In this document: positions 4,507 to 11,970 of the stretch, one piece after another | Numbering within the stretch: the stretch's first letter is position 1 | How the letters are laid out: each line of letters opens with the position of its first letter | Source: a virus | Lineage: Duplodnaviria; Heunggongvirae; Uroviricota; Caudoviricetes | Reading direction: 5' to 3' (one strand) | Virus record (IMG/VR): IMGVR_UViG_2529292873_000017 | DNA: 13,542 nt | Made by a program: the position numbers and the translations under genes | Notes under the pieces: generated by a model | What the model was told of the DNA's origin: nothing | Seen by the model: the letters and a program-made list of their open reading frames with translations, nothing else | Database searches by the model: none

Positions 4507-4560
4507 GGGCGGCAGAGCAGTTCACGGAGTAAAACTGATACCGCCAAACGTCACCAGAAA
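4507..4560 (-). ncRNA. dicF: DicF small regulatory RNA (Hfq-dependent, targets ftsZ mRNA)
   Basis: Minus-strand sequence TTTCTGGTGACGTTTGGCGGTATCAGTTTTACTCCGTGAACTGCTCTGCCGCCC followed by TTTTT matches my recollection of the 53-nt DicF, with a possible 1-nt difference. Lies directly upstream of dicB. Confidence 0.85.
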
Positions 4561-6868: not shown

Positions 6869-7096
6869 ATGTTGAAAATTGATGCTATAGCGTTTTTTGG
6901 CAGCAAAACAAAGCTTGCCAATGTCGCAGGAGTTAGGCTGGCAAGCGTTGCTGCATGGGGGGAACTGGTTCCTGAAGGTCGCGCGATGCGCCTGCAAGAG
7001 GCATCCGGCGGGGAACTTCAGTACGACCCCAAAGTTTATGACGAATATCGTAAGGCAAAGCGGGCGGGGCGGTTGAACAATGAAAATCACCACTGA
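6869..7096 (+). CDS. Cro-like / DicC-YdaS family small DNA-binding protein, 75 aa
   Basis: Small ORF divergent from the repressor; its 3' end overlaps the start of the ydaT-like gene. The family assignment rests on position and size. Confidence 0.7.
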   Translation: MLKIDAIAFFGSKTKLANVAGVRLASVAAWGELVPEGRAMRLQEASGGELQYDPKVYDEYRKAKRAGRLNNENHH

Positions 7097-7631
7097 ACAG
7101 GTTTGTGAGGCTCTGGATACCTGGGTATGCCGACCAGGAATGACACAGGAGCAGGCGACGATATTAATCACGGAAGCATTCTGGGCTCTGAAAGAACGCC
7201 CGAACATCGATGTTCAACGCGTCACGTTTAATGATGGCGAGGTTGATCAACGGGCGCTGGGCGTTAACCGGGTGAAGATATTCGAACGCTGGAAAGCTAT
7301 CGACACCAGAGATAAGCGTGACAAATTCACGGCGCTGATTCCGGCAATTATGGAGGCTATCCGGATCAGCGATTTCAGATTGTATTGTGAAATTACTGAC
7401 GGAAAAAGCATTACGTACATGATCGCCGGGTTAAACAAAGAATATGGCGATGTGGTGGAGTCCGGGCTGCTTTTTGCGGATCCAGTTGTTGTGGAACGTG
7501 AGACTGACGAGCTTATAGAAAAAGCTATTGCTTTCAAGCACGCGTATCGTCAGCAATACCAATATTACTTTGCAGATAAACAAATGTCTGCCAGGGGGTC
7601 GTATGAGTATCGATGCACTACGATGGGCTAA
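7080..7631 (+). CDS. ydaT: YdaT-family protein (proposed CII functional analogue), 183 aa
   Basis: Immediately follows and overlaps the Cro-like gene, as ydaS-ydaT in Rac-type prophages. The assignment is from gene order, not a confirmed sequence match. Confidence 0.6.
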   Translation: MKITTEQVCEALDTWVCRPGMTQEQATILITEAFWALKERPNIDVQRVTFNDGEVDQRALGVNRVKIFERWKAIDTRDKRDKFTALIPAIMEAIRISDFRLYCEITDGKSITYMIAGLNKEYGDVVESGLLFADPVVVERETDELIEKAIAFKHAYRQQYQYYFADKQMSARGSYEYRCTTMG

Positions 7632-8184
7632 AAAGGTGAAAACCGGCAGTTCATCCAGTAAGTCAGTATTGACCTGGCTTGCTGATATGTGCGGTGCCGA
7701 TTTGTGTGCATACCCGTCTGTATCTGCACTGGCAGAAGTAACGGAACTGAACAAAAAGACTGTGCAGGACAGCTTACGACACCTGATGGAGATTGGGTTA
7801 ATTGTTGATACCGGTGAGAGAAAAGGCAGAACAAAGCAAATTGTGGTGTACCGACTTATCGGTGTAGAAGAAAGTGTTGCCGAGCCTGAATACACCCAAA
7901 AACGGGAGTCTTTAAAGGTGGGTACAATTGGTGCTGTTAATAAAAACAGTACCGAAAATGGTTATGTTTCAGCACAAAACAGACCCAAAAACAGAACTCT
8001 TAGCTGCATGGAAAATAACCAAAGACACCCAAATTTTCCATCAAAGACACCCAAAAACGGATCACGGAACCCAAAGGAACCCAAAGAATTAAACCCCACA
8101 CATAACGCGCGCGAGAGTGCTCCGACCAGTGAGCAGGAAGTTTTGTCGTTACAGGCAGCCCCCCTGTATTCCTGTATGGCCTGA
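7603..8184 (+). CDS. Replication initiator (O-like, N-terminal winged-helix) with low-complexity linker encoded by iteron-like repeats, 193 aa
   Basis: ATG at 7603 preceded by AGGGGG. N-terminus MSIDALRWAKKVKTG... looks HTH-like. Phased ACCCAAA repeats lie inside the coding sequence. Confidence 0.65.
   Translation: MSIDALRWAKKVKTGSSSSKSVLTWLADMCGADLCAYPSVSALAEVTELNKKTVQDSLRHLMEIGLIVDTGERKGRTKQIVVYRLIGVEESVAEPEYTQKRESLKVGTIGAVNKNSTENGYVSAQNRPKNRTLSCMENNQRHPNFPSKTPKNGSRNPKEPKELNPTHNARESAPTSEQEVLSLQAAPLYSCMA
7980..8090. repeat. Iteron-like direct repeats (candidate replication origin) inside the initiator gene
   Basis: ACCCAAA cores at 7983, 8027, 8049, 8069 and 8079, spaced 44, 22, 20 and 10 bp apart. 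AAAGACACCCAAA occurs twice and GGAACCCAAAG/GAACCCAAAG is tandem. The flank at ~7931-7980 is AT-rich. Confidence 0.5.
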
Positions 8185-8207
8185 GCGAACCCATCGGAAA
8201 ATTCCCG

Positions 8208-9092
8208 ATGAGCGATAGCTGGTATCCGTCACGGGATTTTCGACGACGGGCTGCGTTGTGGGGGATGGCTTTGCCGGAGACAGAATTTACACCTGCTGAA
8301 CTTGCCGCCTTCCGGGACTACTGGGCAGCGGAGGGGAAAGTGTTTACGCAGGTTCAGTGGGAGCAGAAATTTGCCCGTCACGTGCAGCACGTCAGGGCAC
8401 AGGTAAAACCAGTCAGCAAGGGGGTAAGCCATGCAGCACCAGGTGGCACCGCATCACGGGCAGTTCAGGAAATCCGGGCTGCACGTGAACAGTGGGAACG
8501 TGAAAACGGATTTATCAGCAACGGAAACGGCCTGGAAGCTGTGGGAACTTATGGGGGAGGTGTATTCGAACCGCTGGATCAGAAGAACGGGGCTGCGCCG
8601 TCGAAGCTCTGGATTGCTCAGATTGGCGCGATGACTGAACAGCAAATCCGGCAGGTCTGCCGTCAGTGCATGGACCGCTGCCGGGCGGGTGAAACGTGGC
8701 CTCCGGACCTGGCTGAGTTTGTGGCGTTGATTTCGGAGAGCGGGGCAAATCCATTTGGCCTGACGGTGGATGCCGTGATGGAGGAGTACCGTCGCTGGAG
8801 GAATGAATCCTGGCGGTACGACGGGAGTGATAAATACCCGTGGCCACAGCCGGTGCTGTACCACATTTGCCTCGAGATGCGTTCAAAGGGGATTGAGCGC
8901 CAGATGACCGAAGGGGAGTTAAAACGGCTTGCAGAACGGCAACTGACGAAATGGGCAAAGCATGTTGGTAACGGCCTGAGTGTTCCGCCAGTCCGGCGAC
9001 AACTGGCAGCACCCAAACGCCCGCCAGGGCCAACGCCAATTGAGTTGCTGAAACAGGAATATGAGCGCCGGAAGGCGGCCGGTTTTGTCTGA
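8208..9092 (+). CDS. DnaT-like (primosomal protein I domain) replication protein, 294 aa
   Basis: Segment DFRRRAALWGMALPETEFTPAELAAFRDYWAAEGKVFTQVQWEQKFARHV resembles the C-terminal region of E. coli DnaT as I recall it. Confidence 0.65.
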   Translation: MSDSWYPSRDFRRRAALWGMALPETEFTPAELAAFRDYWAAEGKVFTQVQWEQKFARHVQHVRAQVKPVSKGVSHAAPGGTASRAVQEIRAAREQWERENGFISNGNGLEAVGTYGGGVFEPLDQKNGAAPSKLWIAQIGAMTEQQIRQVCRQCMDRCRAGETWPPDLAEFVALISESGANPFGLTVDAVMEEYRRWRNESWRYDGSDKYPWPQPVLYHICLEMRSKGIERQMTEGELKRLAERQLTKWAKHVGNGLSVPPVRRQLAAPKRPPGPTPIELLKQEYERRKAAGFV

Positions 9093-10555: not shown

Positions 10556-10720
10556 TGTAAGGTTTATACTCTTCAATATGCGTATAATTTTCCTTATTTT
10601 GTTGACTTTAAATAACAAGCTATGCACGAGGTAAAGTCGGATAAGTTTATCTGGATGTAATATATATTATTTGTAGTGTTTATAACTTTATTTCATGATA
10701 ACCAATAAAAGGAGTTTTTT

Positions 10721-11479
10721 ATGAGGAACATAATGGCAGGTTTTTTAATATTCCTGTCTTCTGCTGCTTATGCTGATATCAATCTGTATGGTCCTGGTGG
10801 CCCGCATACAGCCTTGCTTGATGCAGCCAAACTTTATGCCGAAAAAACAGGTATTATAGTGAACGTTCATTACGGCCCACAGAACAAATGGAATGAAGAT
10901 GCCAAAAAAAATGCAGATATCTTGTTTGGCGCATCAGAACAATCTGCTCTGGCTATCATTCGGGACCATAAAGACAGCTTCAGTGAAAAAGATATTCAGC
11001 CTCTTTATCTGCGAAAAAGTATTTTACTGGTAAAGAAAGGTAATCCTAAAAATATCCGGAGTATTGACGACCTGACCAGACCTGGGATTGGCGTAATTGT
11101 TAATGATGGTGGTGGTACCAGTAATACATCAGGCACTGGCGTCTGGGAAGATATTGCCGGACGTAAAGGGAATATAGAAACTGTCGCCGCAATCCGAAAA
11201 AATATTATTTTATATGCGCCCAATAGCGGAACTGCACGTAAGGCTCTTGAGAATCAGCCTGGAGCAGATGTCTGGATAACCTGGGCTGACTGGGCAGCCA
11301 GTAATCCAGAAATTGGTGATGTCGTGGAAATAGCGCCAGACTACGTGATATGGCGTGATATGAACATTACAGTACGTCAGGATGCAAATGATGAAACCCG
11401 TCGATTTGCAGAATGGCTACAAACCGATGAAGCGGCGCCTGCATTCAAAAAATATGGCTGGACCAGGAAAGGCACTTGA
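10721..11479 (+). CDS. Orphan periplasmic substrate-binding protein, ModA/oxyanion-binding-like, 252 aa with signal peptide
   Basis: SD AAAAGGAG 6 nt upstream of the ATG. N-terminal signal peptide MRNIMAGFLIFLSSAAYA. Loose resemblance to ModA, including the C-terminal AAPAFKKYGW versus ModA AAEIFKRYGF. AT-rich; no permease or ATPase gene adjacent. Confidence 0.65.
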   Translation: MRNIMAGFLIFLSSAAYADINLYGPGGPHTALLDAAKLYAEKTGIIVNVHYGPQNKWNEDAKKNADILFGASEQSALAIIRDHKDSFSEKDIQPLYLRKSILLVKKGNPKNIRSIDDLTRPGIGVIVNDGGGTSNTSGTGVWEDIAGRKGNIETVAAIRKNIILYAPNSGTARKALENQPGADVWITWADWAASNPEIGDVVEIAPDYVIWRDMNITVRQDANDETRRFAEWLQTDEAAPAFKKYGWTRKGT

Positions 11480-11622: not shown

Positions 11623-11814
11623 GCGAAAACGGTTTGCTGTAACGGCAGAGTTAAGTAGGATTGCTGCGGGTGCTTGAGGCTATCTGCCTCGGGCATGAAC
11701 ACCAACGGCAGATAGATAAAAGCCCCACCCGACTATAAATCGAAGTGAGGCCCCTATATGCTCGTCACATATAGATTGCCTCTTACGGACCGAAAGGTCA
11801 AGGAGAAGCAGGCT

Positions 11815-11970
11815 ATGAAGCAGCAAAAGGCGATGTTAATCGCCCTGATCGTCATCTGTTTAACCGTCATAGTGACGGCACTGGTAACGAGGAAAGACCT
11901 CTGCGAGGTACGAATCCGAACCGGCCAGACGGAGGTCGCTGTCTTCACAGCTTACGAACCTGAGGAGTAA
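11815..11970 (+). CDS. hokD: Hok/Gef-family type I toxin (HokD/RelF-like), 51 aa
   Basis: Protein MKQQKAMLIALIVICLTVIVTALVTRKDLCEVRIRTGQTEVAVFTAYEPEE matches Hok-family toxins and my recollection of HokD/RelF. AAGGAG 9 nt upstream. An in-frame upstream ATG at 11758 would add 19 residues. Confidence 0.8.
   Translation: MKQQKAMLIALIVICLTVIVTALVTRKDLCEVRIRTGQTEVAVFTAYEPEE

Follow-up and report, generated by a model that had tools for sequence, protein, structure and literature searches.

We analysed a 13,542-nucleotide stretch of DNA (IMG/VR record IMGVR_UViG_2529292873_000017, Caudoviricetes; hereafter the window, meaning this whole stretch), which is the early region of an Escherichia coli lambdoid prophage of the 'PPompW' type. 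Its genes run in the order integrase, excisionase, exonuclease, dicB/DicF, cI-like repressor, cro, a ydaT/cII-position gene, initiator, P, DUF1627, paa and hokD/sok, and positions 7500-8300 are 99.3-99.6% identical to prophages in the genomes of O157:H7 and other STEC (E. coli that produce Shiga toxin). Of 5426 complete E. coli genomes, 1139 have a match to the replication module, and in 907 the match spans 80% of the query or more. The subject of this analysis is an array of short repeats built on the word ACCCAAA, lying at 7890-8085 within the initiator gene, and its candidacy as the replication origin of this module.

The initiator is encoded on the plus strand as a truncated 5' open reading frame (ORF) of 193 amino acids (7603-8184), comprising a winged helix and a disordered linker, and its translation is ended by a frameshift. 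In the intact homologue of strain LSU61 (our locus L001) the gene is a single 346-amino-acid ORF (WP_000020556) with winged helix, linker and DnaT domain; it is annotated as a 'DnaT-like ssDNA-binding domain-containing protein' and is followed by a 153-amino-acid 'replication protein P' gene. Pairwise comparison with L001 placed the frameshift at a C6 run (8153-8158, plus strand) that is C7 in intact relatives, a 1-bp deletion whose identical state in strain 493/89 is labelled 'frameshifted' in RefSeq. A second 1-bp deletion relative to L001, near 8580, puts the DnaT-domain fragment in frame with P. The resulting ORF 8208-9092 (294 amino acids) has matches to PF17948 DnaT (E = 2e-16) as well as to PF06992 Phage_lambda_P (E = 1e-15). 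Among 82 close relatives, the intact 346-amino-acid initiator was present in 69 and the 193-amino-acid form in three (the window included), and the DnaT::P fusion was confined to the window. This close-relative set, collected from viral contigs with a four-sequence profile, holds near-identical E. coli loci only and served for polymorphism and frameshift counts, not for diversity. The two independent deletions may reflect true decay of the genes or an error in sequencing; the first of them lies in a C homopolymer. Minus-strand ORFs at 7431-7895 and 8000-8194 also overlap the region; the plus-strand initiator ORF is the one conserved and annotated in all relatives.

The original prediction described a DnaT-like protein as the product of the next gene. 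The DnaT-like domain (8208-8402, plus strand) instead forms the C-terminus of the initiator itself, from which the C7-to-C6 deletion has split it off into an ORF of its own. It matches DnaT chains in the PDB (E = 1e-18 to 1e-19), and residues 1-65 of ORF 8208-9092 score 59.7 bits against PF17948, above the gathering threshold of 25 bits. The full-length DnaT equivalog NF002770 returned 93 bits, below its cut-off of 201, and we therefore regard this as a DnaT-like domain and not as DnaT. Nor is a DnaC/P-type helicase loader missing from the window, as had been thought: a lambda P-like loader gene, the relatives' 'replication protein P', lies at 8631-9092 (plus strand), fused in frame to the DnaT fragment and carrying the PF06992 match, and its L001 homologue matches PHROG 109 ('P-like helicase loader') with E = 2e-54. 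The P-like protein is short (153 amino acids as annotated), and the PF06992 match takes in the C-terminal two-thirds of the model only. In relatives the P-like frame (L001 8137-8598; 8431-9092 in the window) is open for 221 amino acids from its first ATG, compared with the 153 annotated, and so extended upstream it overlaps the 3' end of the initiator gene in a different frame. PHROG 15931 (482 positions) covers the C-terminus of the initiator as well as P, suggesting that databases commonly contain fused or mis-called versions.

AlphaFold2, run on the initiator with a 60-sequence homologue alignment, predicted an N-terminal winged-helix DNA-binding domain at amino acids 1-90 (7603-7872, plus strand; predicted local distance difference test score (pLDDT) >90, topology H-H-H-H-E-E). 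Amino acids 91-193 had pLDDT values of ~50-59 and are predicted to be a disordered linker, in agreement with the low-complexity linker first described. A Foldseek search of the PDB with the winged-helix domain returned generic winged-helix proteins (best matches MarR/ArsR/TFE) and did not link it specifically to plasmid Rep, DnaD or ORC domains. Against PF13730 HTH_36 (gathering threshold 25) the score of the window protein is 22.0 bits; homologues with 35-73% domain identity score 30-49 bits (E = 1e-7 to 1e-13), and most database relatives carry precomputed PF13730 matches. PHROG families over the initiator N-terminus (PHROG 1032, 6643 and 391) are named 'replication initiation protein' or 'replication initiation O-like'. 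PF04492 Phage_rep_O matched neither the window protein nor the intact homologue, and hhalign of the family alignment against lambda O gave a probability of 4.7% (E = 0.0085), with the equivalent helix-wing region as the aligned segment; the description of the initiator as 'O-like' therefore does not extend to membership of the lambda O family by sequence.

Exact copies of ACCCAAA occur on the plus strand at 7894, 7983, 8027, 8049, 8069 and 8079. The last five, with spacings of exactly 44, 22, 20 and 10 bp, are those that were reported originally, in a range (7930-8100) that left out the copy at 7894 and part of the array described below. ACCCAAA is the most clustered 7-mer of the window, with six copies in 200 bp compared with three for the runner-up, and across 1000 dinucleotide-preserving shuffles no 7-mer rose above four copies (0/1000 reached six). 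When synonymous codons were resampled under an unchanged protein sequence, the copy number averaged 0.55 and never exceeded four, and none of 5000 resamples reached six. The six copies fall in codon phases 1, 3, 2, 3, 2 and 3 and contribute to the peptides TQK, RPK, HPN, TPK, NPK and EPK; since all three phases are used, the repeat is one of DNA and not of peptide. A stray seventh copy at 9011, isolated inside the P gene and without support from the weight matrix, was rejected as an array member.

The matrix was built from 35 distinct repeat copies taken from relatives only and was scanned across the whole window on both strands. It found exactly four sites in 13.5 kb (20.7-30.1 bits), all in the linker, with 7.1 bits for the next best site and a shuffle maximum of 13.3. 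All lie on the plus strand: iteron 1, a full 23-bp dyad unit (ATACACCCAAAAACGGGAGTCTT; 7890-7912; 30.1 bits); iteron 2, full-length but without the ACCCAAA word (ACAGTACCGAAAATGGTTATGTT; 7946-7968; 20.7 bits); iteron 3 (ACAGACCCAAAAACAGAACTCTT; 7979-8001; 23.7 bits), whose ACCCAAA word is missing in ~18 of 79 close relatives; and iteron 4 (AGACACCCAAAAACGGATCACGG; 8045-8067; 21.2 bits), which corresponds to the last conserved iteron of relatives (ending ...CGGAA). The ACCCAAA words at 8027, 8069 and 8079 belong to partial units below the matrix threshold. The first of these (8023-8044, plus strand; repeat family D2) has the left arm CAAAGACACCCAAA, with TTTTCC replacing the centre and right arm, and the other two are half-site-like copies forming a tandem 10-bp duplication (GGAACCCAAA twice; 8066-8085, plus strand; repeat family D3). 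In place of the five ACCCAAA-core units of the original prediction, the array at 7890-8085 thus consists of four full iterons, spaced 56, 33 and 66 bp, and three partial copies, of which iteron 2 and the copy at 7894 had been missed. The first unit starts at codons 96-97, the winged helix ending at about amino acid 90, and the offset of iteron 1 from the ATG (+292) is the same in Edwardsiella phage EPP-1 and in an Edwardsiella locus (L097).

Alignment of 49 enteric-clade copies defined a 23-bp unit, ACACACCC-AAAAAC-GGGAGTGTT, with dyad-symmetric arms around an A-tract, and a dyad test of the consensus from these copies (ACACACCC-AAAAAC-GGGAGTGT) found seven of eight arm positions symmetric. 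Within the window, unit 1 is symmetric at five of six positions, unit 2 also scores on the opposite strand, and symmetry is weaker in units 3 and 4.

More distant relatives widely carry repeats at this position. In a diverse survey drawn from a scan of genome contigs (61 loci, one genome per species, 33-78% winged-helix identity), an exact 8-mer was repeated at least three times within 360 bp after the domain at 46 loci, compared with none of 176 equal-sized control regions. Array-bearing relatives range from Desulfovibrionaceae to Enterobacteriaceae; copies occupy at least two codon phases at 34 of the 46 loci, and the density of CCCAAA at the survey loci is 4.33/kb in the linker versus 0.35/kb elsewhere. 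The repeat word varies by clade, being CAAAAACG in enterics and Vibrio, AGTCCCAA in Acinetobacter and Burkholderia, CCCCCGAA in Desulfovibrionaceae, and unrelated in Moraxella. At one locus (L146) seven copies cycle through all codon phases.

All phage homologues with this winged helix carry an array of repeats at the corresponding position. There are four copies of ACACCCAAAAACGG in EPP-1, six to seven of AAAACGGGA in phiV10, five of CCGAAAACGGTACT with a period of 24 in Vibrio phage Her, and four of AACAGTCCCAA exactly 22 bp apart in Bcep176 (phases 3, 1, 2 and 3), while Acinetobacter phage LZ35 and Edwardsiella phage GF-2 carry CCCAAA-type words. Moraxella phage Mcat8 (L010 1801-2010) has eight copies of a different 18-mer, AAAGGGGGTACAATTTTG, at spacings of ~21-22 or 41 bp; the same winged helix accompanied by a wholly different repeat looks like a clear switch of origin specificity within the family. 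Proteins with the same DnaT C-terminus and a DUF1376 N-terminus (Rac-SA53 YdaU, SPN1S) have no such repeats. The Her repeat ACCGAAAACGGT (L006 2359-2470) has the same form as the papillomavirus E2 binding site (ACC-N6-GGT) of that virus's origin, a likeness that is almost certainly convergence or coincidence; a text search for this word brought up mostly HPV papers, including studies of E2 sites.

DNA comparisons place the end of the winged-helix and iteron module at a mosaic junction at 8083-8093. Homology to Rac-SA53 ydaU (90% identity) starts at 8083, with none upstream, and homology to EPP-1 (67%) covers 7604-8093 and then ends. Both junctions fall right after the last copy; the stretch that encodes the winged helix is thus exchanged with the array as a single module. 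In a set of 40 distinct close relatives, positions 8023-8082, which hold four copies, are nearly invariant and the flanks vary. The fraction of variable sites is 0.19 in the linker versus 0.09 in the winged-helix coding part; iteron cores vary at 4 of 42 sites versus 31 of 172 in the rest of the linker, a difference in the expected direction that is too weak to stand alone.

AA/AAA periodicity over 7885-8095 peaks at 11.0 bp, above all 259 other 211-bp segments of the sequence, which supports the helical phasing originally claimed as far as this window is concerned; a Rayleigh-type test on the six exact copies alone was suggestive only (p ~0.07). The claim does not carry over to relatives, in which spacings cluster at 24, 22, 17 and 33 bp and multiples of 11 are not enriched (36 observed versus 32 expected), and strict 11-bp phasing is not a property of the family. 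The AT-rich flank that had also been noted is modest, and it lies inside the array and not beside it. AT content within the array reaches 70% over 40 bp (7926-7965), the 96.5th percentile of the window and the 99.5th of the early-right operon, and the most AT-rich stretch of the gene (7911-7970, 65-70% AT) is a candidate unwinding region. Immediately 3' of the array, positions 8086-8150 have 38-47% AT. In the mean of 59 diverse relatives, an AT excess of +6 to +10% peaks just 3' of the arrays (+450 to +509), as in lambda.

Several features of this locus recall phage lambda, whose ori lies in gene O with its iterons inside the initiator gene (as it does in six-iteron Shiga toxin phage variants). 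Lambda iterons (TCCCTCAAAACGAGGGA and variants) are 20-24 bp apart and are followed by an AT-rich region and gene P; they start at residue 116 of O, after the Phage_rep_O domain (amino acids 22-115), compared with residues 96-97 here. Lambda and the window share four full units, a unit spacing of ~20-24 bp or multiples of it, a dyad around an A-tract (TCCCTC-AAAAC-GAGGGA in lambda, ACACCC-AAAAAC-GGGAGT in the window), a P-family helicase loader gene directly downstream, and a position of the module downstream of cro and the cII-position gene. They differ in that the N-terminal domain of the window protein is HTH_36-like and not Phage_rep_O (profile comparison not significant), its C-terminal domain is DnaT-like, unlike that of lambda O, and its AT-rich stretch is weaker and inside the array. 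The lambda origin has been proven experimentally, whereas the window system is known from sequence.

Lambdoid origins within the initiator gene are established (PMC8022706, PMC7466680), and other examples share this layout with different components. Gene 18 of P22 and gene 18 of phage L encode lambdoid initiators with their own repeat word within the coding region, as here; phage L gene 18 has six imprecise 11-bp repeats, and these were proposed as its origin from sequence alone, the same level of evidence as that available for the window (PMC8022706). Unlike the window, P22 and L use a DnaB-type helicase (gp12) and not a P-type loader, and their initiator sequence and repeat word differ. The HTH_36 initiators of phiV10/epsilon15-like phages, EPP-1, GF-2, Her, Bcep176 and LZ35 share the winged-helix family and array position of the window, and a CCC/CCG-AAAA(C)GG core is common to most of them; they differ in their C-terminal module (DnaT, Phg_2220_C or none) and in their partner (P-like, DnaB helicase or DUF6475). 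GenBank records of these homologues have no origin or iterons annotated in the gene. Iteron plasmids (RepA/RepE/Pi) and repABC RepC, with its origin inside repC, also rely on directly repeated sites that are bound by a winged-helix initiator. The RepC N-terminal domain gave a weak Pfam match to the window protein that is below threshold (E = 0.0035), plasmid Rep proteins show no significant sequence or fold match to it, and plasmid iterons usually lie outside the rep gene.

A small circular record carries the same module. NZ_CP148379.1 (pZ1323HEC0067-2; our locus L158) is a circular 8,461-bp E. coli plasmid record made up of the immunity and replication region of this type of prophage, with cI-like, cro, ydaT, an intact initiator with six ACCCAAA copies, P, hokD and rem, and with defence-type cargo (an AAA_21 ATPase, an HNH endonuclease and DUF5677). 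No other recognisable replication gene was found in the whole record, which looks like a natural lambda-dv-type mini-replicon or an assembly artefact. Similar records are the 15.6-kb NZ_CP148543.1 and the 8.6-kb linear Klebsiella NZ_CP130688.1.

Taken against the lambda O/ori design, a replication origin is therefore the best reading of the repeats, and we consider it likely that 7890-8085 is the initiator-binding iteron array and origin core of a lambdoid prophage replication module organised like lambda O/ori/P. The original suggestion of lambda-like origin iterons inside the initiator gene is well supported by comparison with relatives, through the arrays at 46 of 61 loci, the dyads with an A-tract and the exchange of the module as a unit. 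Dimers of the initiator N-terminal winged helix would bind the 23-bp dyad units, which are spaced at approximately whole numbers of 11-bp turns, and the A-tract centres, phased at 11 bp, may help the DNA wrap into a nucleoprotein complex. The nearby AT-rich stretch would then melt, and the C-terminal DnaT-like domain would recruit the P-like loader carrying host DnaB. With the initiator split and the loader fused to the DnaT fragment, it is therefore probable that the copy of the origin in the window cannot be fired by its own genes, although an intact homologue elsewhere in the genome could serve it in trans.

A number of observations weigh against an origin at this site. The cognate initiator gene is frameshifted in the window, and only two window units keep the full CCCAAAAACGG centre, indicating an array more degenerate than those of Edwardsiella and Klebsiella relatives. 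The AT-rich element is not strong (maximum 70%), and its place is inside the array, whereas in lambda and in the family average it is found on the 3' side. Homology of the N-terminal domain to lambda O is not demonstrable from the sequences compared, and the small plasmid record could be an assembly artefact. We found no experiment in the literature on the HTH_36/DnaT initiator family, so that the protein binds, that the DNA unwinds and that the origin fires is inferred from the parallels with lambda O/ori-lambda and with gene 18 of P22 and of phage L.

Other explanations of the repeats are much less likely than an origin. The best placed, which we still consider unlikely, is that they are sites bound by the winged-helix protein for autoregulation, for control of copy number (handcuffing) or to exclude related phages, and that the prophage has its true origin elsewhere. 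Iterons of plasmids and lambda do have secondary roles, and plasmid-borne lambda iterons silence incoming rep-lambda phages (PMC3349717); moreover, the window has no strong unwinding element adjoining the array, and its broken initiator still encodes the binding domain. However, all lambdoid cases that have been characterised have their origin in the repeats at this position (PMC8022706, PMC7466680), the AT excess averaged over the family has its peak immediately 3' of the arrays, like that of lambda, and the 8.46-kb circular record has no other candidate origin gene. Regulatory roles of this kind would in any case supplement an origin and not replace it.

That the array arose neutrally, through slippage in replication or duplication of local sequence in a linker under little constraint, and has no function under selection is very improbable. 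The 10-bp tandem at 8066-8085 does resemble recent slippage, and polymorphism in the linker is about double that in the part coding for the winged helix, but slippage sits poorly with arrays at the same position in 46 of 61 species-level relatives, an iteron 1 offset conserved across genera, near-invariance of 8023-8082 amid varying flanks, and the conserved dyad symmetry of the unit. We give equally little credence to the repeats being a by-product of a low-complexity peptide linker (PKNG/PENG-type) that grew by in-frame tandem duplication without any function in DNA: in-frame 24-bp tandem units do encode repeated peptides in phiV10, Her, LZ35 and GF-2, and the linker is predicted to be disordered, but this idea is already largely refuted by the phase data (all three phases and different peptides in the window, mixed phases at 34 of 46 loci including Bcep176 and L146) and by the failure of all 5000 synonymous resamples to match the count.

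Two further and linked ideas are conceivable, though we hold the pair to be unlikely. The winged-helix and iteron cassette might descend from the same ancestor as lambda O/ori-lambda and be an old, portable module of origin specificity, swapped between phages at the linker boundary; in both, a CCC-A-tract-GGG dyad lies right after the domain. The 193-amino-acid iteron-binding fragment and orphan iterons of the window might, in turn, act as a determinant of replication exclusion or incompatibility. In that event, incoming phages of the same origin type would find their initiator titrated or handcuffed by fragment and iterons, as happens with plasmid-borne lambda iterons (PMC3349717).

Origins inside initiator genes are textbook knowledge for lambda and P22, and sequence-based proposals of such origins in their relatives are routine (PMC8022706, PMC7466680). 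The present design is the one expected for such phages, leaving the understanding of lambdoid replication unchanged. Our searches of the literature and of GenBank features found no description of iterons or of the repeat word for the HTH_36/DnaT initiator family, and a literature search by sequence word matched only papers on the papillomavirus E2 site and primers. What the analysis provides is a candidate origin for a module widespread in E. coli, including the PPompW-type prophages of enterohaemorrhagic E. coli, in which current annotation describes the initiator only as a 'DnaT-like ssDNA-binding domain-containing protein' and leaves the origin unmarked. More broadly, the comparison shows an HTH_36 winged helix followed by in-gene repeats to be a general and recognisable signature of putative origins across Proteobacteria. 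This signature could allow automatic annotation of phage and prophage origins and prediction of replication-specificity (incompatibility) groups. For the window itself, the practical message is that the replication genes of this prophage are damaged.

Several neighbouring features complete the picture of the prophage early region. The ydaT/cII-position gene (7080-7631, plus strand) is named 'toxin YdaT family protein' in RefSeq (Pfam YdaT_toxin, E = 3e-5). The best PHROG match of its product is PHROG 163, 'CII-like transcriptional activator' (E = 4.5e-40), and the toxin label may be misleading. Two small RNAs were identified with Rfam: the DicF antisense RNA (4507-4559, minus strand; 73.7 bits), which adjoins dicB, and the sok antitoxin RNA of the hokD locus (11668-11817, plus strand; 103.9 bits). 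A 252-amino-acid ORF (10721-11479, plus strand) occupies the position of paa in relatives, a cargo gene associated with virulence that encodes Paa, an adhesin of the AcfC family. This ORF is preceded by the window's most AT-rich DNA (85% AT, ~10654-10700).

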